Assembly: GCA_029261455.1 (NCBI GenBank)
Contig: JAJDBH010000139.1
Location: 12,922-76,921, forward strand
DNA: 64,000 nucleotides
Reading direction: 5' to 3'
Source: Nitrospinaceae bacterium
GTDB lineage: Bacteria > Nitrospinota > Nitrospinia > Nitrospinales > VA-1
Position numbers and translations under genes: made by a program. The notes under the pieces are model-generated. The model was not told the origin of the DNA. It ran no database searches and saw nothing but the letters and a program-made list of their open reading frames with translations. Below, in pieces: positions 12,854 to 63,289 of this stretch. The first letter of the stretch is position 1, and each line of letters opens with the position of its first letter.

Positions 12854-13459
12854 ATGGTAACGGGAATGATATCAGCAAAAGATTTTAAGAATTTAGGACA
12901 ACTCCTTAAATCTCGAGAAGGTTTCACTTTAATTGAAACCATAATGGTTTTAGCGGTCTTCGGAGTAATCATGGCGATCGCAACTCCAAATTTTTCAAAA
13001 TGGAAAGAGAAACACGAGATAAACGGTCAAGCACAAAAGGTCTATTTTGATTTGATGTTGGCTCGCACCTCTGCTGTCAAAAATAACAATATCGTTAGAG
13101 TCGCTTTCAACACGACTAGTCACACCTACACAATTCATAACGACACCAATGAGGACGGCATCCAAGACTCTGGAGAGGCTGTGAAATCCGTAGCCTTGGA
13201 AAATGATATAAATTTCGCTTACAACACCGGAAACGATGTGGATGGCAATGCCATTGGCGCAGCTGTTTCCTTTGGCGGTTCCACAACAGTTACTTTCGAC
13301 TCCCGAGGCCAGTCCAACGCGAGTGGTTCGGTGTTCTTATTGCACACGAGTGATATCGGCAGCACTAATGACCGCGCACGTTCCATCAGTGTACTTCAGG
13401 CTACCGGTGCTGTGGATTACTGGACTTATGATGGAAGCGTTACGCCTCCTTGGAAATAA
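12854..13459 (+). CDS. GspH/FimT-like minor pilin (prepilin-type N-terminal methylation domain)
   Basis: ..KSREG|FTLIETIMVLAVFGVIMAIA. Class III signal with Glu5. About 200 aa. Confidence 0.8.
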   Translation: MVTGMISAKDFKNLGQLLKSREGFTLIETIMVLAVFGVIMAIATPNFSKWKEKHEINGQAQKVYFDLMLARTSAVKNNNIVRVAFNTTSHTYTIHNDTNEDGIQDSGEAVKSVALENDINFAYNTGNDVDGNAIGAAVSFGGSTTVTFDSRGQSNASGSVFLLHTSDIGSTNDRARSISVLQATGAVDYWTYDGSVTPPWK

Positions 13460-31393: not shown

Positions 31394-31404
31394 CGTATTA
31401 ATTA

Positions 31405-32637
31405 TTACTCTCCATATCCAACAAATTCTGTCTTAGACCCCACGTTTATGACAGGAATTGTCAGGTTAAAAGTAGAGCCCACGCCAACTTTACTTTCCAC
31501 CCAAATATCTCCCCCCAAAAAATGAGCCAGACTCTTACTTATTGCCAACCCAAAACCTACCCCTCTATATCTCCGCTCAACAGATGAATTCCCTTGCGAA
31601 AAAGGTTCAAATAGATCTTCAACCTGTTTTTCTGTCATGCCTACTCCAGTGTCAGAAATTTCAAAACTGATGAAGTTGTTTTTTAATTTTTTACGCAGCA
31701 CAGTTAGAGTTATTTGGCCTGCATCAGTGAACTTGATCGCGTTTTCCATCAAATTTAATAAAATTTTCTTAACTTTTTCCCTATCCGAATATATTTTTGC
31801 CCCTTCCAAATCTCCTTCATAAAAAATGGCTAGCTTTTCTTCATCGATCAAGGGTTGCAAAGCTATATCTATCTCACCCATTAACTTATCCAGTCCAAAA
31901 TGAACCTGATTTAACTTCATTTTTCCAGTATCAATTCTGGAAAAATCTAGAACACCCTCTATAATTTTCAACAAATATCTTCCCGCTTTATTGATCCTTT
32001 TTAAATCAGGAACAAACTCAAGCGCTTCATTTTTTTTCTTTAGATTTAAAGAAATCACTTCACTAAATCCGATAATGGTATTTAAAGGAGTTCTCAGCTC
32101 ATGACTTATATTTCTTAGAAATACACTTTTCGTCTGCCTGGCTAACTCGGCTTCATGCTGAGCTTTTTCCAGTTTTTCATTGACCGCCACTAACTCCCGA
32201 GTCCTTTCATTGACCCTCTGCACAAGAGTTGCATTAAATTTAGTTACTTGATCTAAATACTCTTTCTGAAGAAGAGTGCTTAACAGGCGTGCTATAAGCG
32301 CTTCGAATTGAATTGGTTTATACAATACATCTGTGGCACCCAGTTTTATGGCACGGTGTTTTAGCTTCACGTCATCTTTTCCAGTTATCATAATTACAGG
32401 AATCGTATGCGCCTGAGTTCCATTTTTTATAAATTTTAACAACTCCATTCCATCTGTTCCCGGCATGAAGATATCAGAGATAATGACATCAATATTATTC
32501 CCCCTGATATTTTGAAAAGCTTGGGGCACACTTGTTGCCAGAATCAATTCCCAATCCTGCTCACACGGTCTTAGTAGTCTAGCTATGCTAGCCAAAAAAT
32601 TTTTATCGTCATCTACAAAAAGCAATTTTTTCTTCAT
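31405..32637 (-). CDS. REC-histidine kinase hybrid
   Basis: KKLLFVDDD..DVIISDIFMPGTDG is the REC domain. Coiled-coil linker. H-box ISHELRTPLN. DTGVGM, GVGFGL. I prefer the ATG at 32637. Confidence 0.85.
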   Translation of the reverse strand: MKKKLLFVDDDKNFLASIARLLRPCEQDWELILATSVPQAFQNIRGNNIDVIISDIFMPGTDGMELLKFIKNGTQAHTIPVIMITGKDDVKLKHRAIKLGATDVLYKPIQFEALIARLLSTLLQKEYLDQVTKFNATLVQRVNERTRELVAVNEKLEKAQHEAELARQTKSVFLRNISHELRTPLNTIIGFSEVISLNLKKKNEALEFVPDLKRINKAGRYLLKIIEGVLDFSRIDTGKMKLNQVHFGLDKLMGEIDIALQPLIDEEKLAIFYEGDLEGAKIYSDREKVKKILLNLMENAIKFTDAGQITLTVLRKKLKNNFISFEISDTGVGMTEKQVEDLFEPFSQGNSSVERRYRGVGFGLAISKSLAHFLGGDIWVESKVGVGSTFNLTIPVINVGSKTEFVGYGE

Positions 32638-32850
32638 AGTTACCAACTAAATTTCAGATGAATTATTATTTTCCCCACTGACCCAGTAACTCATACCAAG
32701 CAATAAGTGAGCCAAAAGCATAAAAATAGTAATCCACACTATATCAATGGTTTACAACCAGGCTGGCGCTAGCGAGAGTTTATTAACTTAACGAAATCCC
32801 GTTATCAGTACTCTTTGTTGACGGGTTTCCGTTAGTAATGCGAGGGGATG

Positions 32851-34248
32851 CTATATGAAGGCTTTTCGATGGAGCTCAAATTTTCGCATCTTGTCACGGA
32901 GTGTTTGGCGGGGGATTTTAAGAGTGCTAAGAGTTTTTTTGATATTACCTTTGTTGCGAATTAATTCATTTTCAATCAATTTCTTTTCAAATTCAAAGAC
33001 TCTTTCATGAAGAGTTGAGCCTTCCACTTCCATGGCGGATGCTAAATCACTATCCATTTCTGGAGCAATCATCAAATCATCCGCCATGCCAAGGACATAT
33101 TTTCCCGCTTCATTTTTCAATTCACGGACATTTCCTTCCCAGGTACGGTTATATAATTTCTTATAATAATCACGAGATATCTCGGGAACTTGCTTTTTAT
33201 GGTTCTCACAACCTTGCTGCACAAAATGTTGAAACAAAAGAGGAATATCTTCTTTACGAGTTCGAAGTGGGGGCAAGCAAATCTGAATCACATTTAGCCG
33301 ATAAAACAAGTCCAAGCGAAATTGGTTCTGTTTGCAGGCTTTTTTCAAATCAACCTTAGTGGCCGCAATAACCCTTATATCTATAGGGACTAGTTTGTTG
33401 GACCCCATTCTTTCAACAACCCTCTCCTGCAAAACTCGCAGTAGCTTAACCTGCATATTAAGTGGCATGCTCTCAATCTCGTCAAGGAAAACAGTCCCTC
33501 GATTTGCATGTTCAAATTTCCCTATACGCTTCTGACTTGCCCCGGTAAATGCCCCTGCTTCATGACCGAAAAGCTCACTTTCAAAAATCGATTCCGGAAT
33601 AGCACCACAATTTATAGCAACAAAAGGGTGATCACGTCTTTCACTTTGATCATGCAAACACCTTGCAACCAAGTCTTTACCAGTTCCCGTTTCGCCGTAT
33701 ACCAGAACATCCGACTGCGAACCTGAAACATTTTCAATGATCTTCCTAAGCTGCTCCATAACCGGTGAGCTACCAAGCAAGGTCAATGAGTTTTGGTCAT
33801 ATCTTGCTATTTGAGCGCGAAGTTTTCTTAACTCCAATACAAACCGTCTTTTTTCCAAAGCATGTTCCATTACCTTTTGAAACAATTCAAGCTCAACGGG
33901 TTTTTCCAGAAAGTCGTAGGCTCCGTCTCTAATAGCATCTACAGCCATTCGAATATTTCCTCTCCCAGTGACAAGAACAACAGGTAGATCCTGATCGAAG
34001 CTTTTCACTTTTTTCATCAATGTCAATCCATCCATACCGGGCATCATGATATCGGACACAACAATACCCGGCCAGTCTCTCGTCAGACTGGAAAGTGCCT
34101 TTTGGGCAGAATCAAAAGTCTGAACATCCAACCCTACTCTCCTGAGGTTTCTTTTGTAGGCTTGTCCTAATTTCAGGTCATCATCAACCATCATTATTTT
34201 CCCACTGGAACTCATACTTTTTGGACGTACACCAACTAATTCGCGCAT
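32851..34248 (-). CDS. Sigma-54-dependent response regulator (NtrC family)
   Basis: REC domain (IMMVDDD..VVSDIMMPGMDG). AAA+ domain with GETGTGKD and GAFTGA. C-terminal Fis-type HTH. Start codon uncertain (34248, 34215 or 34194). Confidence 0.9.
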   Translation of the reverse strand: MRELVGVRPKSMSSSGKIMMVDDDLKLGQAYKRNLRRVGLDVQTFDSAQKALSSLTRDWPGIVVSDIMMPGMDGLTLMKKVKSFDQDLPVVLVTGRGNIRMAVDAIRDGAYDFLEKPVELELFQKVMEHALEKRRFVLELRKLRAQIARYDQNSLTLLGSSPVMEQLRKIIENVSGSQSDVLVYGETGTGKDLVARCLHDQSERRDHPFVAINCGAIPESIFESELFGHEAGAFTGASQKRIGKFEHANRGTVFLDEIESMPLNMQVKLLRVLQERVVERMGSNKLVPIDIRVIAATKVDLKKACKQNQFRLDLFYRLNVIQICLPPLRTRKEDIPLLFQHFVQQGCENHKKQVPEISRDYYKKLYNRTWEGNVRELKNEAGKYVLGMADDLMIAPEMDSDLASAMEVEGSTLHERVFEFEKKLIENELIRNKGNIKKTLSTLKIPRQTLRDKMRKFELHRKAFI

Positions 34249-38097: not shown

Positions 38098-39213
38098 CTA
38101 TTCACTACCGGACGTTGTCCGGCGGCGGGCAAGTTTTTTCAAGGTATCACCCTCCCATTCCACATCCAGTCGAGGACGACCCTTATAAAGTCCTTTTTGA
38201 AACGCATAGCCATAAATTAAAGGAAGGGAGACACTGGGCTCGATAAACGCCATGCTATGTGTCGCCTCCTTATTTATTTTGCCCCAAGACTGTGCCTCGG
38301 CCAACGTGCTGCCACTCAATCCACCCCAATGAGGTGAGTCAGTAGTAACTTGCAGAGCATATTTATGCCCTCCTGTATCCACTCCAAAAATATAGGCCAT
38401 GACCACCGAATCGTTGATGTAGTTCTTTGGCACTCCGCCTGCAACATAAAAAGCCGCAGTACGGGTGGAGTTCACCACAATCTGAGTCAATTCATAATTG
38501 TCGCGAATAGAATCTATGGTAATGGGTGTGCGCCCTTCTTTTCGGGCTGTATAGTAATGCTCCGTCAACCCTATTCCTAGACTGGAATCGTTAATAGCCG
38601 GGCAAAAAACGGGCACATTATTTTTTCTGGCAGTGACAAGAATGGATTCTTCATCATCAATCGTTTCCGAAAGTTTAGAGATGAACTCTCTGCTGGAATA
38701 ATTTCTCGGCTCCAAAGTATCGGCGAACCTTCCCACTAAGGTATCGTCCTCGACAAACAATTCATCATCAACATATGTGTCGTAAATCCGATTGATGAAA
38801 AGTTCCCGCAATTGTGTGTCATCAGCATTTGGACTACCATAATAGTGGCCGCCACCAAGAGCGTTGTAGTAATCCTGATATAAAATTGCTCCAGTGGATA
38901 CAATTACATCCACCATATTGTAATGAATCATATCGCGAATGACTTTTCTCAGTCCCGCAGCGATCAGTGGACCAGCCAACCCTAAAATAATGGTGGGCTT
39001 TTCCTCATCCTGAAGCATTTTCCCAAAGATTTTAGCGCATTGCCCAAGGTTTCTAGCCTGAATGGAAGCCGATTGAAACGACTCCACCAGATCACCCACA
39101 TCATTAATACTTTCAAAGTCGACAGGGGAAATTCGAGTATTTAAAATCTCTTTTTTTTTCTTCTTCTGCCCATCATCCAAGGGTTCGGGCATATAAGATT
39201 CTTTGTACCCCAT
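38098..39213 (-). CDS. Deoxyhypusine synthase-family protein (bacterial DHS-like / homospermidine synthase-like)
   Basis: 371 aa. ILGLAGPLIAAGLR, DVIVSTGAILYQD and FCPAINDSSLG resemble the DS family NAD/spermidine-binding regions. Recognised by eye. Confidence 0.75.
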   Translation of the reverse strand: MGYKESYMPEPLDDGQKKKKKEILNTRISPVDFESINDVGDLVESFQSASIQARNLGQCAKIFGKMLQDEEKPTIILGLAGPLIAAGLRKVIRDMIHYNMVDVIVSTGAILYQDYYNALGGGHYYGSPNADDTQLRELFINRIYDTYVDDELFVEDDTLVGRFADTLEPRNYSSREFISKLSETIDDEESILVTARKNNVPVFCPAINDSSLGIGLTEHYYTARKEGRTPITIDSIRDNYELTQIVVNSTRTAAFYVAGGVPKNYINDSVVMAYIFGVDTGGHKYALQVTTDSPHWGGLSGSTLAEAQSWGKINKEATHSMAFIEPSVSLPLIYGYAFQKGLYKGRPRLDVEWEGDTLKKLARRRTTSGSE

Positions 39214-48681: not shown

Positions 48682-49254
48682 TCATTTCTTCGCACGCTCT
48701 AAATACTCTCTCGATGTGGTTGAAACCTTCACCACTTCACCTATCTGAATAAAATTCGGCACCGTCACAACCAGACCGGTTTCGAGTGTCGCCGGTTTTC
48801 CCGACCCAGAAGCAGTAGCCCCCTTCAAAGGAGGTTCCGTATCCGTCACAGCGAGCTCCACTGCTTCGGGGAAAGACACACCAATGGGGTTGTCGTCACA
48901 AAACTCAATCTTTACCTTGGCATTGGGCAATAGAAATGCCTTGTCATTGCCAATGACTTTATCTTCAAGAAAAATCTGTTCATAAGTTTCGCAGTTCATA
49001 AAGCATAAACCCGCAGGGTCATCGTATAGATATTCCATCTCTATCTGTTCCATTTCGGCACGCTCTACCGATTCATCGGAACGGAACTTCAATTCTGTTT
49101 GCGTTCCGTCCTTTAGTTTTCTAAGCTTAGCCTGCATGGATGCCTGTCCTTTTCCTGGAGTGCGATGTTCGGTCACCATGACACGATATAAATCACCCTT
49201 AACCTTGATCACATACCCGGGACGAAGCCCATTACCTTTAACAAAAGCAACCAT
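48682..49254 (-). CDS. efp: Elongation factor P (Lys-type loop, ..RTPGKGQAS..)
   Basis: LRPGYVIKVKGDLYRVMVTEHRTPGKGQASMQAKLR. 190 aa. Confidence 0.95.
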   Translation of the reverse strand: MVAFVKGNGLRPGYVIKVKGDLYRVMVTEHRTPGKGQASMQAKLRKLKDGTQTELKFRSDESVERAEMEQIEMEYLYDDPAGLCFMNCETYEQIFLEDKVIGNDKAFLLPNAKVKIEFCDDNPIGVSFPEAVELAVTDTEPPLKGATASGSGKPATLETGLVVTVPNFIQIGEVVKVSTTSREYLERAKK

Positions 49255-51982: not shown

Positions 51983-53428
51983 TTACCGCCACTCCAACCC
52001 GACACCGTGCAGGTTGAGGAGTTTGTTGTTCAGCGTTTCAACTTTCCATTCCATATCTGTGCCAGTTGGTTGACCAGAAATGTCAACCGTGCCAGTTAAC
52101 AGATTACCTTTTTCAAATTCTCCAGCATCAGACAGAGTAACCTGAGTGAAGGTGGTTCCTCCATCACGACTCACCGAAGCTTTGAGATCTGTGTTGATGA
52201 CGATATCTGCCGCCACATCTTCTGCCATGAGAATGATATTGGCACCATTCGGTTCTGTCTTCGCCGTCTGCGAATTGGAAACCAGGGTCATATTTTCTGT
52301 AATAACTTCGGTTGCATGGACTTTGAAATATAAATCAGTTTCCAGATTTCCACTTGGCCAGGTAACACCACCATCGTTTGATATATTGTATCCACCAACA
52401 ATTGGACCAGTGACACGGTCAGCACCTATAATCCAACCGGTATCCACAGCCTGATTTGCCATTGCAGTGACAATCCAATATTGGGTAGAGGCGCTCAAGT
52501 TAATGCCACCAGAAAAAACCCATGAATTTACGTTGCCCACAGAAAAAGTTCCTGGAACCACGGTTATTGCTTTTGTTGCACCCGGATCTACCAGGGTTCC
52601 TGATGGTCTATTTGAACTGTCTGTTTCGATACGTACGGTCACATTTCCTACAGGGCTCCCAAAGTTTTCGAAGAATTGCAAATCAACTTGCGAAAGCGAT
52701 ATGCTTGTTCCAGTTGTAAAAGACTGTGCCACTCTATACTCAACTCCAATTTGATCACCAATACCCTGAAACCTTAGTCCAACTTGATTAACAATATCTT
52801 CGTTACCTCCGATGGGATTCAGGTTTTTATATTTTTCTCCATTGGAATCATAATCTTCATTCGTAGATGCGGTGGCATCAACACCGGTCTCGCTATTAAA
52901 AGCATCCACGGATCCGTTGATCATTTTCAATACCTGAGGTGGACTGACATTTCCTGCCGTCCGGTAAGCGTTCAACAATACATTAGAATTGAAAAGCTGA
53001 TCGCCTTCGGCAGGGTTGGCCCACAAAAGGTTTCCGCTGGTGTCTGAAGTGAGGAACTGACCGCTTGCCCCCACTGCCAGTCGAGTTTCACTGGTGCCAT
53101 CATGAACCAGAACATCCCCTTTGGTGGTGAGTGTTTCAGGAGCAGCGATGGTGAGTGTTTCGTTGGCGCCACCATTGCCTTCGGTGAGTGTGATCCCGGC
53201 TCCTCCAACTAGTTTTCCGTTCAAGAATCCCGCTGTCGTGTCATCAGCAGAGACCTTGACATTTTCATCTGTTGCAGTTGATGAGATGGTGAGTGTGGGG
53301 TTTGCTCCATCGGTGACCTGTAAATCGATGTTCGCCCCTTCCTCCATTGTCAGAGTTTCGGCTGAGGCGGTTGCCCCGCCTGCCAGAATCAAGCTCAACA
53401 ACATGATCAGTACTAATAAATTTCGCAT
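51983..53428 (-). CDS. Secreted protein with a phage-tail-fibre-like motif (function unknown)
   Basis: ATG at 53428 behind AGGGGG. Signal peptide MRNLLVLIMLLSLILAGGATASA. TTKGDVLVHDGTSETRLAVGASGQFLTSDTSGNLLWA resembles a motif common in phage fibre and receptor-binding proteins. The remainder is beta-rich. Confidence 0.55.
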   Translation of the reverse strand: MRNLLVLIMLLSLILAGGATASAETLTMEEGANIDLQVTDGANPTLTISSTATDENVKVSADDTTAGFLNGKLVGGAGITLTEGNGGANETLTIAAPETLTTKGDVLVHDGTSETRLAVGASGQFLTSDTSGNLLWANPAEGDQLFNSNVLLNAYRTAGNVSPPQVLKMINGSVDAFNSETGVDATASTNEDYDSNGEKYKNLNPIGGNEDIVNQVGLRFQGIGDQIGVEYRVAQSFTTGTSISLSQVDLQFFENFGSPVGNVTVRIETDSSNRPSGTLVDPGATKAITVVPGTFSVGNVNSWVFSGGINLSASTQYWIVTAMANQAVDTGWIIGADRVTGPIVGGYNISNDGGVTWPSGNLETDLYFKVHATEVITENMTLVSNSQTAKTEPNGANIILMAEDVAADIVINTDLKASVSRDGGTTFTQVTLSDAGEFEKGNLLTGTVDISGQPTGTDMEWKVETLNNKLLNLHGVGLEWR

Positions 53429-53589
53429 ATCGAACCCCCTTAAAAGCGTGAAAGTATTTGAATACGGATAACTTTCACGCAGAGGTTTTGGTTCGAACAA
53501 GCGAAATATTCTTCTTGCCAAAGCCCTAAGAAATTAACGGTTAATATTCAAGGTGTTTGGGAATGAAAAAATGTGCGGTGGGGTCTACA

Positions 53590-53797: not shown

Positions 53798-56239
53798 CTA
53801 TTCCACGCTGACACCGCGCCGAGCGGCGGGGAAGGTCAGGGAGAACGTCGTTCCCTTGCCTTCTTGAGAGGAGACGTCAATCTTTCCGCCATGTTTCTCC
53901 ACCAGTTTATGGACGATGTTCAGTCCCAGCCCCGTTCCCTTACCTTGCTCCTTGGTGGTGAAAAATGGATCATAAATTTTCGACAAGTATTCTTTGGGAA
54001 TGCCCGGCCCTGTATCCTTTATTGTCGCAAAAACAACTCCATTTTGCCCTGCAGTTGATATTCTCAGTTCTCCTTTACCTTCCATCGCTTGTACTGCATT
54101 CGTCAGTAAATTAGTAAATATTTGTTGAATTTCTTCGGGCTTGGCTTTAATGGGAGGCAGCGCAGAAAAACTTTTATCTACTCTAATATCATTATTATAG
54201 GAAGTAAGAATTGCAATCTCGATGGCCGCATCGATACGTTCATTAAGGTCCACCTCTTTTTCTTCTACCAACCCGGCAGAGCGTGTGTAGCCCGACATAT
54301 TGAGAATGATCGACGCCATATGCTTGGAACGATCAAAAACTTTACTGGCATATTTATGAATTTTTTTCTGATCCTTTTCATCAAGAATAGCTTCCGTAAA
54401 ACCCATGATGGAGACCAGCGGATTGTTCAACTCATGGGCAATGCCCGCGGCAAGCGTACCCAGACCAGACAGCTTTTCCGCCATTGCCAGTTGATCATGC
54501 AACTCCACATCTTCCGTAACATCTCTTAAGAGCAGTCCAAGTCGTTCACCACTGCCATCATGAATAACAATATCAAAAATCTGGAAAGCGAAAACCTTTC
54601 CGTCCAGCTTGATAGTTTGTTTCATGCTTTGCAGGGAAGGAGATTCCTCCCGAGGAGCAAGAGGATCACGGGCGGTATAACATTGTATGCTTTGGCTCCC
54701 CAGACCATTGTTAGCAATGGGGACAACTTCACTATAATAATTGATGAGCGCTTCCTGCACATCCTTCCAGGCAGAGGAAGACTCCAGATCCTTTAAATGA
54801 TTCCCCAACAGTTGCTCGTCAGTTCGACCAGCGATATTTTCAAAGGCTTCATTCACGTATTCAATTTTCATCTTTGGGTCAAATATAGCCACTGCATCGG
54901 GCACACTTGTGAGAATACTGTCGGTGTATTCTTTGAGGTAACGGACTTCTTCAGTTTTTTCGCGCACCTTACTTTCCAACCCTGAAAAAGATTTTTGCAG
55001 TAAATCATTCATCTGATTCACTTCATTAGCAAGAGCCTCCAGTTCGTCTCCGGTTTTTATTTCCAAGGTTTCAACTTTTTCACCTTTACCAATGCGCTCC
55101 GCAGCTTTCTGTAGTCTTCTAATCGGCTGAACAATTTTCTTAGCCGCTAAAGAGCCCATGCCTCCGATCAGCAGAATGGACACCACCCCAGCCGTGGAGA
55201 TCCATAAAAAGAGTTTGTTCATGGGGGCGAATAATTCATCCGAAGCCTGCCAGGCAAACGTGTACCAATTCTTCCCTTCCGATTTCGTGATCAGTTCCCT
55301 AGTTTGCTGTAGAGGTGAAAATCCGATGATGGAAAGTTCTTCTCCTCCATGACCGTCTCCCATGGTTTTAACCCAATCTGGATTTTTCCCTGTAACACTC
55401 CTCACTAGAACGGGATCTTCCAACATAAATCCTGTTGGCAAAATCGGGCAATCAACCACCATGCCGCTCGAATCAATCATCATGACATGACCCGTTTCGC
55501 CAAAGGTGATTGGTTCGATGGAACCAGAAAAAAACTCCCTCGCATCAAACACATGATGCAAAACTCCTATCGTCCTCTCCTTTTCATCAAGAATCGGGAA
55601 GGCAAATGTCATCAAAAAAGATTCAGTTTTTTTATTAAAGGTGACCGGTCCTATATAAACAAACTCTTTTCCACCTGCAATGGTTTTTCCCCAATCAGGC
55701 TTTTCACTATGAAGCCATTCGGGGAAGTCGTTGATGCTTGCCCGGAGAACCCCGAAGGCATCGGTGACATACAATGCCTGCGTCGCAAGAACAGACAGTA
55801 TCTTTCTTTTCTGGAAACTTTGCAGTGCCCAACTGGCTTCTGACTCAAGAATGGGTTTGGTTGAGCCAGAAATTACTTCCTCAATCTGTATTTGCCGTGT
55901 TGCCGGGTTAAGGAGGGTCTGATTGAAATCTAAAATGCTTGATCGGATGGAAGGGTGAGCAGCATGGCGGATATTTCGTGATATCTCACCATCTATCAAT
56001 AAATCTACCTTGGTAGAAGTTTCATAAGCCAACGCCTTGAAGCTGGCTCCGATCACCCCCTGCAAGGATTTTGTCCCCTGCAAATAGGAAAGGATCATAG
56101 CCAGCATCAAGGGTAAGGCCCCAACCCCGAGCATAGTCCAGATTAATTTATTTTTTAATCCGGCACGTATGCCCTTCCGTATTTCAGTTACCCCGGAGCT
56201 TCTCGCTTGAGAAGAGGGATTGTCACGATGTGCATCCAT
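53798..56239 (-). CDS. Sensor histidine kinase (periplasmic Cache-like domain, HAMP, PAS, HisKA, HATPase)
   Basis: Two TM segments flank a periplasmic domain of about 300 aa. HAMP (IVQPIRRLQKAAERIGKGE), PAS, H-box AAGIAHELNNPL, DTGPGIP, GKGTGLGL. Confidence 0.85.
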   Translation of the reverse strand: MDAHRDNPSSQARSSGVTEIRKGIRAGLKNKLIWTMLGVGALPLMLAMILSYLQGTKSLQGVIGASFKALAYETSTKVDLLIDGEISRNIRHAAHPSIRSSILDFNQTLLNPATRQIQIEEVISGSTKPILESEASWALQSFQKRKILSVLATQALYVTDAFGVLRASINDFPEWLHSEKPDWGKTIAGGKEFVYIGPVTFNKKTESFLMTFAFPILDEKERTIGVLHHVFDAREFFSGSIEPITFGETGHVMMIDSSGMVVDCPILPTGFMLEDPVLVRSVTGKNPDWVKTMGDGHGGEELSIIGFSPLQQTRELITKSEGKNWYTFAWQASDELFAPMNKLFLWISTAGVVSILLIGGMGSLAAKKIVQPIRRLQKAAERIGKGEKVETLEIKTGDELEALANEVNQMNDLLQKSFSGLESKVREKTEEVRYLKEYTDSILTSVPDAVAIFDPKMKIEYVNEAFENIAGRTDEQLLGNHLKDLESSSAWKDVQEALINYYSEVVPIANNGLGSQSIQCYTARDPLAPREESPSLQSMKQTIKLDGKVFAFQIFDIVIHDGSGERLGLLLRDVTEDVELHDQLAMAEKLSGLGTLAAGIAHELNNPLVSIMGFTEAILDEKDQKKIHKYASKVFDRSKHMASIILNMSGYTRSAGLVEEKEVDLNERIDAAIEIAILTSYNNDIRVDKSFSALPPIKAKPEEIQQIFTNLLTNAVQAMEGKGELRISTAGQNGVVFATIKDTGPGIPKEYLSKIYDPFFTTKEQGKGTGLGLNIVHKLVEKHGGKIDVSSQEGKGTTFSLTFPAARRGVSVE

Positions 56240-56269: not shown

Positions 56270-56692
56270 TTAGACATAATCAAATTCTTGCGGAGATGCC
56301 AGCACCTCGGCAACTTTGGCCAACAATTTTTCTTTCTCAACAGGTTTGACCAGATAATCTTTCACACCTTTTTTCATCAAAGAAACTGCCAAGTCTGAGT
56401 CGGGATAACCCGTGACCACAATGATAGGAATAGAAGGTGCATTCTGTTTCAAGTAATCAATGGCCTCAATGCCATTGACCTTAGGCATTCTGATATCGCA
56501 AAGGATCAACCCAACTTGTAACAGGTTTGCACCTGACTTCATCATGTTAATACCTTCTTCTCCATCTGAAGCCTCGATCACATTGTATTTGCCCGACTCA
56601 AGGTGAAGCCTTAACACTTCTCTCACTTCTGCTTCATCATCGATGATAAGAATCTTTCCTTTGGTGCTGGAAGCATTTTCTATAAAGGACAT
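56270..56692 (-). CDS. Single-domain response regulator (CheY-like)
   Basis: KILIIDDE...LILCDIRMPKVNG...IIVVTGY...KDYLVKP. ATG at 56692 behind AGGAGG. Confidence 0.85.
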   Translation of the reverse strand: MSFIENASSTKGKILIIDDEAEVREVLRLHLESGKYNVIEASDGEEGINMMKSGANLLQVGLILCDIRMPKVNGIEAIDYLKQNAPSIPIIVVTGYPDSDLAVSLMKKGVKDYLVKPVEKEKLLAKVAEVLASPQEFDYV

Positions 56693-56932
56693 GGGGAACC
56701 TCCTGCTCAGGTTTGGGAACAAAGCTCACTGCCTGGGAAAAACTGCAATTTACTTTTTTCACAAAAAGTGAACTCAACCACTAACTTATAGGGAATATAA
56801 TTCCCGAAAAAGGATCCCGCCACAATTTACAAAATGAATTTTTTTTCATTAACAAGTTTCAGCCGCAGGACGCGACACAGGAAACAACCTCAACCTTATG
56901 TAATCCAAGGGGAAAATGATGCAAAAGCCTCA

Positions 56933-56970
56933 AAGAAGGCATTGTGCCATGAGGAACACAATGCCTTCTT
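56933..56970 (-). terminator. Terminator hairpin ending the cytochrome operon
   Basis: Perfect 14-bp inverted repeat AAGAAGGCATTGTG / CACAATGCCTTCTT, starting 4 nt after the trihaem cytochrome stop. Confidence 0.65.
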
Positions 56971-56973
56971 TAA

Positions 56974-57975
56974 TTATTGGCCTTTGAAGGTAGAACGAAC
57001 GTAAGCGATGACATCGGCCAGACTTTGCTCAGGCAAAGTCATACCCCAGTCCGGCATATTGGAAGATTTGCCGACACTTTTACCGCCAAAATAAATCAGG
57101 TTATATAAATAATCCTCTGGGTAATCTGAAAGTGGCAGATCGGCATGAACTGCCGGTTTTGGGTCCAAACCTTTAGCACCCGGTCCATCACCCTTACCTT
57201 GAGGACCATGACACTGCACACAATATTCTTTATAAACTTTGGCGCCTCGTTTCGCGTCGGATTTTTTGAAAGCCGCAGAATTCCACGGTTCGTAGAATTT
57301 AAAATCCTTCACACCCAGGGTCATGACATAACCTATAACATGGCGTGCCTTGCGAGCGCTGATGTCTGCCAGATATTCACCACTATGCGGGGTGAAGTCC
57401 TGAGGGTTTTCTGCGAACCGGCTCCACCAATCCAGATTGTATCGGTTGCCTGCATTAAAGAGGTCAACACTGATCGGGCCGCCCATGTTTTTTCCTTCAT
57501 CATCCTTAATCTGGTGACAACCCATGCAGGAATATTCCTTAAAAATCCCTGCCCCCAAGCTGGCCTCCATTTCCGTAAAGGTGGACATGTCGACAAAGCT
57601 TTTCTTGATCCGAGGGTCACGGTAAGTCTTTTCCATATAATCAGCGATCGCTATGGCTTCTTCCTTCATCAATACCATATGCTTGCCGGAAAAAGTGGAT
57701 TTGTCCCAGCGATAACTGTTGGGGTAAAGATTGTCTTCCTGCCCCATCAGTCGGCGGATCAACCAGGGACGTTGGTACTTAACGCCACTCCACATCAAGT
57801 CTGGGGCTTTCAACCCAAACTTGGACGCAGGTTTACCTTCAAACCTGTGGCAGTTTTTGCACTGACTGTTAATTATTTTTTCGGCGAACCCATCATCACC
57901 GGCCCAAAGGGCGGAAGGCATTGATATCAATAAAAACAGCAACACTGCGAAACATACAACTGATAATCGCCTCAT
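56974..57975 (-). CDS. Trihaem c-type cytochrome
   Basis: Signal peptide. Three CXXCH sites: CKNCH, CMGCH, CVQCH. Confidence 0.8.
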   Translation of the reverse strand: MRRLSVVCFAVLLFLLISMPSALWAGDDGFAEKIINSQCKNCHRFEGKPASKFGLKAPDLMWSGVKYQRPWLIRRLMGQEDNLYPNSYRWDKSTFSGKHMVLMKEEAIAIADYMEKTYRDPRIKKSFVDMSTFTEMEASLGAGIFKEYSCMGCHQIKDDEGKNMGGPISVDLFNAGNRYNLDWWSRFAENPQDFTPHSGEYLADISARKARHVIGYVMTLGVKDFKFYEPWNSAAFKKSDAKRGAKVYKEYCVQCHGPQGKGDGPGAKGLDPKPAVHADLPLSDYPEDYLYNLIYFGGKSVGKSSNMPDWGMTLPEQSLADVIAYVRSTFKGQ

Positions 57976-58004
57976 AATAATTCTCCCGTCCCTGTTAATA
58001 AACT

Positions 58005-58490
58005 TCAGACTATCAAAAACTGCTTTATGAATAAAATCAACTGCCAGATTTCCTCAGGCTTCAAAGTGGATTTATGAGCTGGCATGGCAGTACCCCGCGA
58101 GCCGTTCTGAATGACCCAGAACAACTGACCGTCTGGCAAGTCGCTCATCACTTCAGCGCATGTAAAGTTTCTCGGAGGTGGGTCCAACCTTCTTGCCAGA
58201 CTGCCATTACCATTGCCCTTGGCTCCATGACAGAGCTTGCAAGCAGTTGGTTTAGCATCTTTATTAAAAAGCCGCTTGCCCTCGGCCAGGTTTTTTGGAG
58301 TCGGTGGCACTGGGTTCTTCTTTTTAAGGTACCGACCTGGAGCCTTTCGGGTTTTGCGGTTCTGCGGACAAATCCCAGAAACCAACAGCACCGATCCATC
58401 CCTACTTTGAACGCGTGGCAGAACATCTTCGGCAACCACCTCTTGCCCTGACAATAATAGCGTTAAGGACAGTGCCAAAACCCGGAGCAT
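58005..58490 (-). CDS. Monohaem class-I cytochrome c (type B, no His-rich insert)
   Basis: Start MLRVLALSLTLLLSG at 58490. CPQNR, CKLCH, PPRNFTC, DGQLFWVIQNGSRGTAMP. Confidence 0.75.
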   Translation of the reverse strand: MLRVLALSLTLLLSGQEVVAEDVLPRVQSRDGSVLLVSGICPQNRKTRKAPGRYLKKKNPVPPTPKNLAEGKRLFNKDAKPTACKLCHGAKGNGNGSLARRLDPPPRNFTCAEVMSDLPDGQLFWVIQNGSRGTAMPAHKSTLKPEEIWQLILFIKQFLIV

Positions 58491-58494
58491 CGTT

Positions 58495-59061
58495 TTATTT
58501 TCTTCGAGGTTGAGAGAACTGACGCAAATAATGAATAATCTGCCATATTTGCTTGTCATCAAGATCTTTAAATGCCGGCATACCCGTTCCCGGTGAACCA
58601 TTGCGGATGATCCAGAACAACTGACCATCGGAAACATGCCGCATCGTTGCCTTGCAATTGAAATTCCGTGGCGATGGATTCAGCCCCTGCGCCATGATAC
58701 CTAGTCCATTACCATTCACACCATGGCAAATTTTGCAGGCCACCGGCTGAGCATCCACCTGGAACAAAGATTCACCTGCATAAATAGTGTCCCGGCTGGA
58801 TTCCAACGGATTAGGCTGGTCACGGATTTCATCAGGAGCCTGATCTGTATACCGCTTCTGCGGACAAGTGCCCTCACCGGCAAACCCCTGCCCATGGTGC
58901 CCGCGATGGTGACGCAAATGATGCCGATGTCCATATCCCATAGGCGGCGGTCCCGCTAATACATCAGATATCATCCCAAATATAAATATTCCCAGGATCA
59001 CACCAACGATACCAGCCTTGCTGAACCCTCTCTTCATATTGAACACCTGTAGAAAATCCAT
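58495..59061 (-). CDS. Monohaem cytochrome c (type B) with His-rich insert
   Basis: GYGHRHHLRHHRGHHGQG, CPQKR, CKICH, PRNFNC, DGQLFWIIRNGSPGTGMP. Start is 59061 or 59037. Confidence 0.75.
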   Translation of the reverse strand: MDFLQVFNMKRGFSKAGIVGVILGIFIFGMISDVLAGPPPMGYGHRHHLRHHRGHHGQGFAGEGTCPQKRYTDQAPDEIRDQPNPLESSRDTIYAGESLFQVDAQPVACKICHGVNGNGLGIMAQGLNPSPRNFNCKATMRHVSDGQLFWIIRNGSPGTGMPAFKDLDDKQIWQIIHYLRQFSQPRRK

Positions 59062-59065
59062 TCGA

Positions 59066-59488
59066 TTAATTACTTAGAGAAAATGTGCGGATGAAATGAA
59101 TCACACTCCAACCCTCTTCTTCGTTGATAACCTTGCCTACCCGCACCGGCATTTCCGTTCCCGGACTACCATTCCTCAATACCCACATGAGTTCGCCATC
59201 AGTCCGGGTCTCCTGCCATTTTGGATCGGTAAAATCTCTCGGCGAATGACCGGGCCGTTGCACCCCTTTGCCATCAACATTGTGGCAGGTGACACACTGG
59301 CCTTTACCAAAATAAATCAGTTGCCCGGAATCTATTCTCTCTGGAGTTGGCGAGTAGGGGTTATCCATATCCTGAAGTTCGTCTAAAAGTTCAGGAGGAA
59401 CCCTCGGCGCATAGTTATCTAGATGAAACGCTTCGGCCAAACCTGCAAGCAAGAGAGCCGCTATTAGAGTTAAATGGATCGTTCGCAT
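59066..59488 (-). CDS. Monohaem cytochrome c (type A)
   Basis: Signal peptide. PRVPPE, CVTCH, PRDFTD, DGELMWVLRNGSPGTEMP. Confidence 0.75.
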   Translation of the reverse strand: MRTIHLTLIAALLLAGLAEAFHLDNYAPRVPPELLDELQDMDNPYSPTPERIDSGQLIYFGKGQCVTCHNVDGKGVQRPGHSPRDFTDPKWQETRTDGELMWVLRNGSPGTEMPVRVGKVINEEEGWSVIHFIRTFSLSN

Positions 59489-59554
59489 AATTTGGATCCA
59501 TTATAATCAAAAAACAGCAAGGGTTACCACCCCAGCAACCATCTTCTTTCTAAA

Positions 59555-60208
59555 TCAATTACTGAGCTGGCGAATAAAATGAATCAATTGCCATATCTGC
59601 CTGTCAGTAAGGCTTTCGAAGGGAGGCATACCTGTACCGGGAGAACCATTTTTTATGATCCAAAACAATTGCCCGTCAGGAATTTTTTCCATCGTTTCTA
59701 CGCAAGTGAAGTTTCTTGGAGGCGGGGTCATGTCTCCACTCATCATGCCCAAACCATCGCCTGAGCCGTGACACATTGTGCAACTGGGTTGCGCATCCAA
59801 CTGAAAGAGCAGGCGCCCTTTTTCAATATTATCAGAGGAGTTTTCCAAGGGGTTGGTCGCATTATATAAAGATTCAGGAGCTTTGGCAGTAGCTCTGGGT
59901 TGCGGACATTGAGACTCGCCATCTAATCCGGGGCCACTGCCCCCATGGTGCATCATCCCATGTCTCGAACCTCTATGATGTCCTTTTCCACCACGCTCGC
60001 AACCCATATGCTGTTCTCCCTGCTTGCAGCCACCACGACGAGCAAGAATAATCGTCTCTTTATTTTCAAAATTGAGGAACCCTTTATCATCATTTGGAGA
60101 TGGGGAAACCCCTGCATAGACAGGGCCATTCAAAAGCAGAAATATCCCAAGAACAACAAAAAGCAATCTCGAAATTGTATTGAGTTTGTTTAACAATAAG
60201 TTCTTCAT
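59555..60208 (-). CDS. Monohaem cytochrome c (type B) with Cys/His/Met-rich insert
   Basis: GGCKQGEQHMGCERGGKGHHRGSRHGMMHHGG, CPQPR, CTMCH, PPRNFTC, DGQLFWIIKNGSPGTGMP. Confidence 0.75.
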   Translation of the reverse strand: MKNLLLNKLNTISRLLFVVLGIFLLLNGPVYAGVSPSPNDDKGFLNFENKETIILARRGGCKQGEQHMGCERGGKGHHRGSRHGMMHHGGSGPGLDGESQCPQPRATAKAPESLYNATNPLENSSDNIEKGRLLFQLDAQPSCTMCHGSGDGLGMMSGDMTPPPRNFTCVETMEKIPDGQLFWIIKNGSPGTGMPPFESLTDRQIWQLIHFIRQLSN

Positions 60209-60299
60209 AATTGAAAACCTCTAAATGTGTTCCTGGAATTGAGCTACCGCGTATTATCAGCAACCCTTTGACTGCAAAAATCAAACGATGAGATTTTCT

Positions 60300-60743
60300 T
60301 CACTTTCCAAATGAGCGGACATACAAAATCAAATGCCAGGCCTCTTCTTCAGTCACCACCGAAGGTACAAACTTAGCCATGGCAGTTCCTTCACTGCCAT
60401 TTTTCAAAATCCATAGCAGTTCCCCATCTTTCCGTGTGGTTTGCCAGACTTTATCAGTAAAGTTTCGCGGGAGCTTTCCTACCAGTCCGGGGATATCACT
60501 AAACCCTCTGCCATCTATTCCGTGGCAGGTCACACAAAATGCCTTGCCGGTAAAAAGGGCTTTGCCCTTTTCAATATTCTCTTTGGTAGAAGGAAAAGGA
60601 TTGACCCATGATCGCGCTTCTTCAATCTGGTCAGGAGGAACCCTGGGGTTCAGAATTTCTGAATCAGTTGCTGCGCTCGCCACAGGTAATAAGCAGAGGA
60701 GCAAGCCACAAAAGAGTCCTGTTCTCATCTTGTTCTCAAACAT
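60300..60743 (-). CDS. Monohaem cytochrome c (type A)
   Basis: Signal peptide. PRVPPD, CVTCH, PRNFTD, DGELLWILKNGSEGTAM. Confidence 0.75.
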   Translation of the reverse strand: MFENKMRTGLFCGLLLCLLPVASAATDSEILNPRVPPDQIEEARSWVNPFPSTKENIEKGKALFTGKAFCVTCHGIDGRGFSDIPGLVGKLPRNFTDKVWQTTRKDGELLWILKNGSEGTAMAKFVPSVVTEEEAWHLILYVRSFGK

Positions 60744-60823
60744 GCTCCAGCCTCCTTAAGTTAATTCTATATTTATTGAGAACACAGGGAGGACAAACAC
60801 CGCCCTCCCTATGCACGGTTTGG

Positions 60824-61476: not shown

Positions 61477-62043
61477 TCAAGATTGGTTGTTTTTTTCCCA
61501 ACGTTCCAGAGATACCAACCCGAATATCCCCGCAACCCACAAACCTGCTATGAATAACCAGGGAGAGAGTCCGGTGAGATCTACAAAAGTCACTTTTCCA
61601 AAGTTCCCTACACTCAAAATATGAGACTTTATCCATGGGTAAACTTCAGCAAATAAACCGGCACCCACAATCATTCCAAACACTCCTGCTATAGCGTGCC
61701 GGGAGCCTTCACCCATGGCGGCAACTGCGGTCCCTGGGCAATACCCCAATACCGCCATCCCTGCTCCAAAAATGAGTCCACCCAAGGCGTTCCCCAAGAG
61801 TGCCGTGGTCTTTACATGCAAAGCGATGTCAAAACCTAAAGCCCGCATGCCATATATACCCACGCTACCCACCATCACTGCCGTCAACATGATCTTAAGC
61901 ACAGTAAAGTCTTTCAACATGAATTGCCCCACAATCACGTTGTACCGGGTCACACCACCTTTTTGCAGTAAGAAACCAAATAAAAATCCTATAATTCCCC
62001 CCATCAAAATGGTGGCTGGGTTTGCAAAAAAATGTTCAAACAT
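61477..62043 (-). CDS. YeeE/YedE-family membrane protein, second half (DUF6691-like)
   Basis: Start MFEHFF at 62043 gives an ATGTTTGA overlap with the upstream stop. Polytopic. GYCPGTAVAA motif. Confidence 0.75.
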   Translation of the reverse strand: MFEHFFANPATILMGGIIGFLFGFLLQKGGVTRYNVIVGQFMLKDFTVLKIMLTAVMVGSVGIYGMRALGFDIALHVKTTALLGNALGGLIFGAGMAVLGYCPGTAVAAMGEGSRHAIAGVFGMIVGAGLFAEVYPWIKSHILSVGNFGKVTFVDLTGLSPWLFIAGLWVAGIFGLVSLERWEKNNQS

Positions 62044-62659
62044 TATTTTTCCCTCCCTTGCCATACAACAACCAGGCCGTAACAATTCCAGCGGCAAACA
62101 GGCAAAGAAAAAATATCCAGGAAGATACCGCCAATTGAAGGCTACCGGAAATTCCATGCCCGGAAGTGCAACCACCTGCCAAACGCGCCCCGAACATCAC
62201 AATAATCCCTGCCAAAAAAGCTCCTGCAAAACGAACGCCCTTTGAAGGACCAAACCGTACTTTCCAGATATCGGGAACGGTTTCACTTAAGCGGGTCGAT
62301 GATAACCATGATGCACAAAACGCTCCCAGAACCAACATTACCACTAATGCAAACTGCCATTCAAATACAGGGTAGGGTCCTTCCAAAGTTCCAAGGTATT
62401 TTACAAAATAGGCATTTGATCTAATATGGTCCTCAGACACCAATCCTTCAACCATTCCCGCAGTTCGAACAAAGGTTGTGGAGACTCCCAAGGCCTTATT
62501 CATCAAAGCAAAAGTAACCCATGAGAGTAAACCAATTCCGGTTCCTACTGCATAGGGTGACCACCGAGCTTTTTGAAATATTGAGAGCATTTTCTCTTCC
62601 ATTGCCTTTGTTTTTTTCAGCAACCGGTTAATGAGGTAGAAATTCTGGGGTTTGGGCAT
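62036..62659 (-). CDS. YeeE/YedE-family putative sulfur-compound transporter, first half
   Basis: Polytopic. LAGGCTSGHGISG is the family signature. Start uncertain (62659, 62602 or 62590). Confidence 0.75.
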   Translation of the reverse strand: MPKPQNFYLINRLLKKTKAMEEKMLSIFQKARWSPYAVGTGIGLLSWVTFALMNKALGVSTTFVRTAGMVEGLVSEDHIRSNAYFVKYLGTLEGPYPVFEWQFALVVMLVLGAFCASWLSSTRLSETVPDIWKVRFGPSKGVRFAGAFLAGIIVMFGARLAGGCTSGHGISGSLQLAVSSWIFFLCLFAAGIVTAWLLYGKGGKNNV

Positions 62660-62828
62660 CCAGTTTTCTTCTCATCTCAGCGGATAAACTTTTGATCTTA
62701 CTCTGGCCCGGATTCAGCCCCATATCCTGATCTTTAATCTTTTTCCAGTATCGACGACTCAGCTCCTGACTGGAAAGTATTTTTTTCAATTTTCTCTTAG
62801 CATTGTAGATGCGCACTTCATAAAACAT
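62628..62828 (-). CDS. Small basic protein (66 aa), unknown function
   Basis: ATG at 62828 sits 4 nt after GGAGGTGG. MFYEVRIYNAKRKLKKILSSQELSRRYWKKIKD... has no TM segment and no Cys. Confidence 0.4.
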   Translation of the reverse strand: MFYEVRIYNAKRKLKKILSSQELSRRYWKKIKDQDMGLNPGQSKIKSLSAEMRRKLDAQTPEFLPH

Positions 62829-62851
62829 TTTCCACCTCCTCGCTAATAGGG

Positions 62852-63289
62852 TCAAAAGGCAAACTGGTTTCCCTTTTCTTTTTCACTGAGCTTTCTCAAA
62901 ATCTTCACAATCAATTCAAACTCCAACGATTTATTTAAAACAAAGTCTGCACCTGCCATTTTCAGTTGAGCTTCAATATCTTCATAAGGTTGTTCCGCCA
63001 AAATAATCAGAATGGGTTTGTTTTTAGAGAATTCAAAATCCCTCATTACATTCATTGCCGTTCCATCGGCAAGATACAGATCTAACACCAAGACATTGGG
63101 CTGAAAACGGTGAACAGAAAGAGCGATCTCTTTCAGACTGGTCCATGTCGCGACCACGTCCACTTCGGGAATGCCTTGAACCAGACCATACAAACGGCCC
63201 AACACACCTTTAGAGTCTTCAACTGACAGCAAAACTTTCACCAGACTTGTCTCCTCAATCTCTTTCATTAAGGTAAGTATGGGTGACAA
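62852..63289 (-). CDS. Stand-alone receiver (REC)-like protein, slightly atypical
   Basis: VLVLDLYLADG is the putative phospho-Asp. Acidic pair is ED. Ala replaces the usual Thr/Ser (IILAEQ). Conserved Lys in FVLNKS. Start is 63289 (TTG) or 63268 (ATG). Confidence 0.6.
   Translation of the reverse strand: MSPILTLMKEIEETSLVKVLLSVEDSKGVLGRLYGLVQGIPEVDVVATWTSLKEIALSVHRFQPNVLVLDLYLADGTAMNVMRDFEFSKNKPILIILAEQPYEDIEAQLKMAGADFVLNKSLEFELIVKILRKLSEKEKGNQFAF

Follow-up and report, generated by a model that had tools for sequence, protein, structure and literature searches.

What is a row of six cytochrome c genes for, when no obvious enzyme partner is encoded among them? The question is raised by a 64,000-nucleotide stretch of DNA (hereafter the window; positions 12,922 to 76,921 of contig JAJDBH010000139.1, assembly GCA_029261455.1) from a marine nitrite-oxidising Nitrospinaceae bacterium. 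Nitrospina and marine Nitrospira make most of the nitrate in the ocean. For these organisms, the electron-carrying cytochromes c and the use of sulfur compounds are still open questions (PMC3578206, PMC10839748, PMC12342949). An initial annotation, made from the sequence alone, had described the six genes as a tandem array of near-identical carriers without an enzyme partner. We find that the cytochrome genes and a DUF1264 gene upstream of them are one conserved gene cluster, which is an expanded, split and lineage-specific version of a three-gene module: DUF1264, a monohaem protein resembling cytochrome 579 (A1), and a cytochrome with four haems (tetrahaem). The module is widespread and unstudied in nitrite-oxidising Nitrospinota and Nitrospirales, and the array in the window is not unique.

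Six cytochrome genes and their DUF1264 partner

Six minus-strand open reading frames (ORFs) span positions 56974–60743 and hold eight CXXCH haem sites in total; genes and haem motifs are as the initial annotation had listed them (Table 1). Five encode monohaem proteins, named A1, B1, A2, B2 and B3 in gene order, and the sixth a trihaem protein. Judging from the Cys and His frequencies of the ORFs scanned (all of at least 60 aa in the window), about 0.008 CXXCH motifs would be expected per 1186 residues, and none occurs elsewhere in these ORFs. All six proteins pass the gathering cut-offs of PF00034 and PF13442 (21.3 and 27 bits) with scores of 32.7–76.5 bits. Hydrophobic signal-like segments can be read directly from their N termini, in line with the earlier view of them as secreted c-type cytochromes. 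Individually, they are ordinary class I cytochromes.

The partner that had been overlooked lies 80 nt upstream of A1, on the same strand, and encodes a secreted DUF1264 protein. To follow this pair through relatives, one genome per GTDB species was scanned with an alignment of the five paralogues, matching at least 596 stretches; our locus survey covers the best 80 of these matches (numbered L001, L002 and so on), all from Nitrospinota or Nitrospirales. In a phmmer survey over every ORF of these loci, a DUF1264 gene stands directly upstream of the A1 orthologue, on the same strand and at a median gap of about 77 nt, in 78 of the 78 species loci that have DNA upstream of A1, across two phyla. 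The A1 orthologues of the best 80 species loci are 59–92% identical to A1, the closest being that of a Nitrospinaceae metagenome-assembled genome (MAG; L006, 92%). Named homologues of A1 and DUF1264 come from Nitrospina, Nitrospinota, Ca. Nitromaritima or Nitrospira, and those of the type B proteins from Nitrospina, Nitrospinota or Ca. Nitromaritima.

To our knowledge, DUF1264 has no known function and no solved structure. The protein in the window aligns to positions 3–130 of the 171 positions of the PF06884 profile and is a short, divergent, secreted member of the family. Residues H40, H45, H57, H58, C60, C71, E87, H109, D110, H111 and E114 are invariant in its subfamily; such a set of conserved His, Cys, Asp and Glu residues resembles a metal site and makes the protein a candidate metalloprotein. 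Its AlphaFold2 model (predicted local distance difference test score 78.5, predicted template-modelling score 0.72) has no fold match in the PDB (best Foldseek E value 0.3, TM-score at most 0.26), and a sequence profile gave no meaningful PDB match either (best E value 0.64). No cytochrome gene adjoins a close homologue from a Geobacteraceae MAG, near which a multicopper oxidase gene lies; the pairing with A1 is therefore specific to the nitrite-oxidiser lineages and not general to DUF1264. The literature that we found on DUF1264 consists of plant, fungal and animal-feed omics, with no link to a bacterial cytochrome; a single Beggiatoa paper mentions the name, apparently as a mislabel. Both DUF1264 and the cytochrome cluster go unmentioned in four genome papers on nitrite oxidisers (PMC3578206, PMC8115632, PMC10839748, PMC12342949).

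Purifying selection acts on each of the seven genes, the ratios of non-synonymous to synonymous substitution (dN/dS) being 0.05–0.24 in comparisons of the window with L002, L007 or L006: 0.06–0.10 for DUF1264, 0.11–0.15 for A1, 0.05–0.12 for A2, 0.24 for B1 (against L006), 0.19 for B3 and 0.05–0.12 for the trihaem gene. These values speak against decaying duplicates, and on them pseudogenisation is rejected.

The gaps between the six cytochrome genes, from A1 through the trihaem gene, are 91, 66, 4, 4 and 29 nt, within the range of 4–91 nt given earlier, and the hairpin placed after the last gene is real: none of 200 shuffled sequences folds as well. The six genes form one co-directional cluster that ends at a strong terminator and, as had been proposed, are probably one operon. 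A small internal hairpin (GGGGTGGTAACCC, followed by a T run) adjoins A2 whether or not B1 is present, and is conserved at the DNA level in the A1–A2 spacers of L002 (10460–10505) and L008. It may be an attenuator that divides DUF1264–A1(–B1) from the downstream genes. Between DUF1264 and A1, the stem-loop at 60782–60814 has no clear U run behind its stem.

A natural fusion of the trihaem protein with a type B cytochrome

The homologue of the trihaem protein in Nitrospirales has about 476 aa and four haems. The L001 protein ends in a type B domain, 120 residues long, that contains CPQPR, NFTC and DGQLYWVIKNGS, and such a C-terminal domain is found in 22 of 22 tetrahaem homologues (21 Nitrospirales loci, counting both L001 and L015, which are the same contig, and one Nitrospinaceae locus, L050). 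By motif search, CPQxR is present in all 22 of these domains and NFxC in 21; compared with B1–B3 they score 137–151 bits, mostly best to B2. The trihaem forms have no C-terminal type B domain, and free B genes lie alongside them. Since the two are fused in the tetrahaem homologues, the trihaem protein and the type B cytochromes would be expected to act together, and the architecture argues that they work as one chain.

In the trihaem protein itself, the only invariant candidate ligands of domains 1 and 2 are His residues (H99 and H197), and that of domain 3 is Met307, which suggests a step in redox potential inside the protein. Every Cys of the mature protein lies in one of the three CXXCH motifs. 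An exact look-up of its sequence gave no record in public assemblies. The family is small, with 27 cluster representatives at E values of at most 1e-30 among 1.84 billion proteins, and none of the ten larger distant relatives scanned (530–1195 aa) carries a fused enzyme domain, cytochrome domains being all that was found.

Sulfur genes around the module

In marine Nitrospirales the module is part of a co-directional island, in which genes for a persulfide dioxygenase-rhodanese, a rhodanese, DUF1264, A1 and a small conserved ORF are followed by those for a response regulator and kinase, SorA, SorB, a CoADR-rhodanese, the tetrahaem cytochrome and TauE. The L001 molybdoenzyme scores 585.6 bits to the SorA model (cut-off 600) and its neighbour 75.8 bits to that of SorB (cut-off 93). 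The tetrahaem gene lies directly upstream of sorA–sorB in six distinct Nitrospirales loci (L001/L015, L039, L049, L064, L074 and L075), a second association that does not sit with an array lacking any partner. In L049, which is from Nitrospiraceae, a half-size YeeE/YedE pair also stands beside the tetrahaem gene and SorA.

Neighbour genes were counted within 10 kb for the 50 long loci that have at least 15 kb of DNA. A sulfur-related gene lies near DUF1264–A1 in 21 of the 50; SorA-like genes are found in 14, persulfide dioxygenase-rhodanese genes in 11, CoADR-rhodanese genes in 11, rhodanese genes in 15, and a tri- or tetrahaem gene in 23. The link is weaker in Nitrospinaceae than in Nitrospirales, yet present: a split YeeE/YedE pair stands immediately upstream in the window, L006, L007 and L011, and in L050 a CoADR-rhodanese gene sits between a B gene and DUF1264. 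SorAB itself has been noted in the genomes of N. gracilis, N. marina and the Nitrospira of lineage IV, but not proven physiologically (PMC3578206, PMC8115632, PMC10839748, PMC12342949).

Marine Nitrospirales have, after A1, a conserved ORF of about 134 aa (L001 10475–10879; 15 of the 50 long loci) that is not in the window. It has no Pfam match, a hydrophobic N terminus and a C-terminal C...C.

The array and its history

We compared gene order among the relatives. DUF1264–A1–A2–B2–B3–trihaem is the order in L002, L003, L008 and a 372-kb JGI contig. L007 shares the order of the window, including B1 and the upstream YeeE/YedE pair, as does L006 as far as B1, where its contig ends. L011 has A1–A2–B2–trihaem, several Nitrospinaceae have DUF1264–A1 only, and five Nitrospirales loci (L043, L067, L076, L080 and L083) show the minimal order DUF1264–A1–tetrahaem.

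In a neighbour-joining tree, A1, A2, B1, B2 and B3 fall into five separate clades of several species each, the A2 clade holding orthologues within Nitrospinaceae; a sixth clade, of type B, collects the copies that relatives carry beyond the downstream kinase. All five monohaem proteins are old paralogues. B1 is present in L006, L007 and L050 and absent from L002, L003, L008 and L011. An alignment of the spacers shows that the sequence which separates A1 from A2 in L002 and L008 is divided in the window: the left part comes after A1, and the right part, with the hairpin and T run, after B1; B1 is therefore a clean one-gene cassette indel and not half of a duplicated A–B unit. Duplication of such a unit, which the A–B–A–B–B order had suggested, is rejected on the separate clades and the single-gene indel.

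The two subtypes themselves are real and are confirmed by an alignment of the five small proteins, in which A2, B1, B2 and B3 are 30–43% identical to A1, so that they can hardly be called near-identical. The sequence block that the five had been said to share holds overall, except that A1 has MA and not MP after NGS.GT and that the C-terminal motif deviates in B1, B2 and B3. The Met in NGS.GT.M, a candidate haem ligand, is invariant in all five. The Cys pair that distinguishes type B (CPQxR...NFxC) is present in 118 of 119 type B homologues, and from this co-conservation it could be a disulfide.

In B1 and in B2, a segment of low complexity separates the CPQxR motif from the signal or anchor helix. 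That of B2 is His-rich (GYGHRHHLRHHRGHHGQG, residues ~41–60, window 58900–58960) and that of B1 is rich in His and Met (GKGHHRGSRHGMMHHGGSG, residues ~75–95, window 59940–60010). At least four His per 20 aa are found in about 75 of the 119 type B homologues; the feature is variable or absent in B3 and many others. In an AlphaFold2 model of B2, residues 41–60 are disordered and the cytochrome core is ordered, and such a segment could act as a flexible tether or bind metal. B2 has a second possible start at 59037. Upstream of its His-rich stretch, B1 has a second Cys pair (RRGGCKQGEQHMGCERGG, CX8C, residues 61–72, window ~60020–60060), which is kept in the L006 orthologue and is not found in B2 or B3.

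Genes flanking the cluster and the rest of the window

Upstream of DUF1264 lie two half-size membrane proteins of the YeeE/YedE family, which comprises transporters of sulfur compounds, both above the PF04143 cut-off of 27 and with weak matches, far under the cut-offs, to the TsuA/YedE equivalog models. As listed, the two ORFs (61477–62659) overlap by 140 nt, and the real start of the second half is therefore probably further downstream. The pair occupies the same position in L006, L007 and L011, is absent in L002 and L008, and varies independently of B1, L011 having the pair without B1. Two small ORFs beyond it on the minus strand are conserved upstream of DUF1264 in Nitrospinaceae: a basic one of 75 aa without a family match (62628–62855), and a degenerate receiver-domain protein (62852–63289) that at 29.6 bits is just below the cut-off. 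Further out, a GerE-type response regulator is cut by the window end; relatives also have a GAF histidine kinase there.

On the other side is a stand-alone response regulator (56270–56722), homologues of which adjoin the tri- or tetrahaem gene both in Nitrospinaceae and in Nitrospirales. The dCache-HAMP-PAS histidine kinase that follows (53798–56239) is syntenic in L007, L008, L011 and the 372-kb JGI contig, and is a probable regulator of the cluster. Past this kinase is a 512-aa ORF (51983–53521, minus strand) with a hydrophobic segment at residues ~33–53 and no Pfam match; in L007, L011 and the 372-kb JGI contig, a sixth type B cytochrome c (155–161 aa) that is not in the window lies past the kinase.

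Table 1. Features of the cytochrome cluster and its flanks, in window coordinates
Feature	Position	Strand	Basis
YeeE/YedE-family membrane protein, first half	62036–62659	-	PF04143, 71 bits
YeeE/YedE-family membrane protein, second half	61477–62175	-	PF04143, 66 bits
Secreted DUF1264 protein, 173 aa	60824–61345	-	PF06884, 50 bits (cut-off 25)
Stem-loop between DUF1264 and A1	60782–60814	-	14-bp G+C-rich stem, z = -1.96
A1, monohaem class I cytochrome c, CVTCH, signal-peptide-like N terminus, cytochrome-579-like	60300–60743	-	Pfam, NF033864
B1, monohaem type B cytochrome c, CTMCH; variable single-gene cassette	59555–60208	-	Pfam, alignment, tree
Small hairpin GGGGTGGTAACCC then T run, upstream of A2	59510–59541	-	Terminator-like match; weak fold, z = -1.0
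A2, monohaem type A cytochrome c, CVTCH	59066–59488	-	Pfam, NCBIfam, alignment
B2, monohaem type B cytochrome c, CKICH; His-rich, predicted disordered tether	58495–59061	-	Pfam, alignment, AlphaFold2 model
B3, monohaem type B cytochrome c, CKLCH	58005–58490	-	Pfam, alignment, tree
Trihaem cytochrome c, three class I domains: CKNCH, CMGCH, CVQCH	56974–57975	-	Pfam, NCBIfam
Intrinsic-terminator-like hairpin ending the cluster	56930–56973	-	-33.3 kcal/mol, z = -6.0, U-rich tail
Stand-alone response regulator	56270–56722	-	PF00072
dCache-HAMP-PAS histidine kinase	53798–56239	-	Pfam

The rest of the window is given over to housekeeping and regulatory genes, among them a Tol-Pal-like set, EF-P, RodA, RNase G, pilin-like genes and several two-component proteins. 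At 30001–34000 the G+C content drops to 0.37–0.40, with strong negative GC skew; this segment codes for a PAS histidine kinase, a hybrid kinase-receiver and a sigma-54 response regulator, and may represent a regulatory island that is foreign or evolves fast. A deoxyhypusine-synthase-family gene (PF01916, 293 bits; 38098–39213, minus strand) shares the window with EF-P (48682–49254, minus strand); the deoxyhypusine synthase family is best known in eukaryotes and archaea. Between 12854 and 20270 on the plus strand, pilin-like genes with N_methyl and PilX_N motifs lie among large ORFs without a family match.

A proposed periplasmic relay and its rivals

The reading that we favour starts from what is directly observed, namely the genes, their conservation, the DUF1264–A1 pairing, the fusion and the sulfur-gene neighbourhoods. 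It holds that the cluster encodes a periplasmic multi-cytochrome relay, fed by an oxidation in the periplasm whose most likely substrate is a sulfur compound, oxidised via SorAB encoded elsewhere or via DUF1264. A periplasmic relay with a possible sulfur link had been raised before and fits the comparative data; we put the probability of the reading at about 0.45, a little short of even odds. In such a relay, for which we infer a direction of electron flow, an electron donor and catalysis by DUF1264, the trihaem protein would dock with type B cytochromes much as in the natural tetrahaem fusion. B1 and B2 would ride on flexible His-rich tethers, possibly anchored in the membrane if their N-terminal helix stays uncleaved. 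From the trihaem and type B proteins, electrons would reach the soluble carriers of type A and then a respiratory chain that oxidises cytochrome c. Their source would be a periplasmic oxidation, most likely of a reduced sulfur compound, be it sulfite via SorAB elsewhere or the substrate of a DUF1264 reaction; the adjacent YeeE/YedE pair might carry a sulfur compound across the membrane, and the flanking two-component systems could turn the cluster on.

A bolder version, which we hold to be rather doubtful, makes DUF1264 a hitherto unrecognised periplasmic metalloenzyme that, with its cytochrome-579-like acceptor, forms a redox couple specific to nitrite oxidisers of the Nitrospina and Nitrospira type, the type B and trihaem proteins serving as a split-or-fused haem wire into respiration. 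If this were true, the DUF1264–A1 couple would be an unassigned step of energy metabolism or a new oxidase of sulfur or nitrogen compounds.

Several observations weigh against a relay fed by periplasmic oxidation. The 64-kb window holds no known oxidase, reductase or dehydrogenase, where the initial annotation had seen none in the operon; no sox, nxr, bc or terminal oxidase genes were found in it, and the L001 SorA-like protein, used as a phmmer query, has no match there. About half of the long loci have DUF1264–A1 without a nearby sulfur gene. Neither SorAB nor another known catalytic gene lies within 10 kb in the Nitrospinaceae loci examined, and guilt by association in Nitrospirales might not transfer to Nitrospinaceae. 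Because SorAB has its own cytochrome, SorB, the tetrahaem protein is not needed for its catalysis; because no solved fold matches DUF1264, a catalytic role for it is a guess from conserved residues. We found no expression data for the cluster.

A serious contender, albeit one that we consider unlikely, is that these proteins make up the pool of high-potential cytochrome c that serves nitrite oxidation in general, carrying electrons from the periplasmic nitrite oxidoreductase (NXR) to the terminal oxidase and, for reverse flow, to the bc complex, with DUF1264 as an accessory. DUF1264–A1 is found in all 80 best species loci, every one from Nitrospinota or Nitrospirales, and the long loci without a nearby sulfur gene fit this explanation as well. 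A1 is homologous to cytochrome 579, the Leptospirillum carrier for another high-potential donor (PMC8126622), and the carriers between NXR and oxidase have not yet been assigned in Nitrospina (PMC3578206, PMC10839748). Yet the lack of nxr, oxidase and bc genes in the window counts against the nitrite chain too, and none was noticed in the annotated loci. Two-component systems bracket the cluster, which suggests conditional rather than constitutive expression, and the copy number of the array varies, down to Nitrospinaceae with DUF1264–A1 only. In a transcript table of N. moscoviensis, a species for which the gene is not established, 'DUF1264' is absent from at least the top 400 ranks, and the top-transcribed monohaem cytochrome (NITMOv2_3685; 450 nt, the 12th most transcribed gene) has DUF4115 and not DUF1264 as its upstream neighbour; it is probably not the A1 orthologue.

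The remaining explanations are less likely than these. That the B1 and B2 tethers and the His-rich DUF1264 protein bind iron, manganese or copper, which the cytochromes oxidise or reduce, strikes us as improbable: the His-rich stretches of many type B homologues, the invariant His, Cys, Asp and Glu of DUF1264, the homology to the cytochrome 579 of an iron oxidiser, the ArsP_2 permease near the cluster in L050 and the multicopper oxidase near the Geobacteraceae DUF1264 gene would suit such a module, whereas there is no outer-membrane porin-cytochrome of the Cyc2 or Cyt572 type, all CXXCH motifs being in the six soluble or tethered proteins. Moreover, the His-rich segment is predicted to be disordered and varies or is missing in B3 and many homologues, and no metal transporter is conserved alongside. 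More improbable still is a purely sensory role, in which the cytochromes report the redox state of the periplasm to the adjacent dCache histidine kinase and do not carry bulk electron flow. In both phyla, a response regulator and histidine kinase do stand beside the tri- or tetrahaem gene (window, L007, L011, L045, L051 and L081), but eight haems in six proteins exceed the needs of a sensor, the widely conserved DUF1264–A1 pair often occurs without these regulators, and regulators commonly adjoin the genes under their control. We give hardly any credence to the idea that the genes are redundant, drifting duplicates, mostly not expressed. Copy number does differ among relatives, and the internal hairpins could shorten transcription; each copy, however, is intact, with its CXXCH and candidate Met ligand kept, has its own clade of orthologues and is under purifying selection.

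What is new here is an invariant DUF1264 partner with an orphan predicted fold, a split-or-fused architecture and a genomic link of the module to SorAB and persulfide genes. DUF1264, a cytochrome-579-like cytochrome and a tri- or tetrahaem cytochrome make up a candidate module in all 80 best-matching species loci of both phyla, and the natural tetrahaem fusion predicts which of the cytochromes dock together. The analysis also provides a first concrete lead to the biochemistry of bacterial DUF1264.

Comparison with known systems

Could the proteins be routine subunits of a known complex? Membership in SoxAX, CcoP or SorU was rejected, with curated NCBIfam scores well under the cut-offs, and none of the six scores as a subunit of a bc complex. 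To SoxX (TIGR04485, cut-off 61), domain 1 of the trihaem protein shows a weak resemblance at 43.3 bits, and the protein has no extra Cys for a His/Cys-ligated haem of the SoxA type. With the ccoP model (TIGR00782, cut-off 180), the window proteins reach 16.6–44.5 bits. The monohaem subunit ActE of alternative complex III belongs to the same family, PF13442, as does CcoP of the cbb3 oxidase, and both are among the top PDB matches by sequence and fold, but the window has no alternative complex III or cco genes. No nir genes are among the annotated window ORFs; no model specific to NirM or NirC was run.

There are also matches to cytochromes of another nitrogen-cycle organism. In a profile search of PDB sequences, the five paralogues match Kustc0457 of Kuenenia stuttgartiensis best (6H5L chain B, E value 1.8e-21), followed by ActE, small c552 cytochromes and CcoP. 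Kustc0457 has the block G.G.G...PRNFT in common with them at about 25% identity. The closest folds to B2 are T. paradoxus c552, ActE and Kustc0457, and small anammox c552 proteins (5MXY, 7O38) are also among its top matches. The Kuenenia cytochromes are partners of periplasm-like redox enzymes; Kustc0457 is the fused dihaem partner of an HAO-like octahaem enzyme, and no such enzyme is encoded here.

SorB and SorU of the sulfite-oxidising systems are periplasmic class I cytochromes, as the window proteins probably are, and SorU is among the structural neighbours of B2. The SorU model gives about 20–21 bits for B1–B3 (cut-off 100). As SorAB already has SorB, cytochromes of the kind found in the window would be its downstream acceptors and not its subunits.

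A further comparison is with cytochrome 579 of Leptospirillum, a genus of Nitrospirota. It is likewise a small monohaem class I cytochrome, and is secreted, as the window proteins probably are. It serves as an oligomeric carrier in iron respiration, its modified haem has an alpha band that lies near 579 nm when reduced, and we know of no DUF1264 partner for it. Its family model (NF033864) is the best curated match for A1, A2, B2 and B3 and a close second for B1. A1 matches it across nearly the full length with 100.4 bits (E value 1e-28); A2 reaches 65.5, B1 43.6, B2 51.8 and B3 50.3 bits, all far below the equivalog cut-off of 280. Among relatives, Nitrospirales A1 orthologues score 102–108 bits, the L050 orthologue 91 and other A-like paralogues 117–128 bits. 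On these scores, the monohaem proteins are homologues of cytochrome 579 and not members of its family. The hosts differ: Leptospirillum is an acidophilic iron oxidiser, and the organism of the window is marine and neutrophilic and oxidises nitrite. Two homologue types of cytochrome 579 are encoded per genome, and the octamer in which this periplasmic carrier was purified was inferred to hold two co-purifying homologues (PMC8126622). By analogy with that octamer, the several paralogues of the window may form one multi-haem relay.

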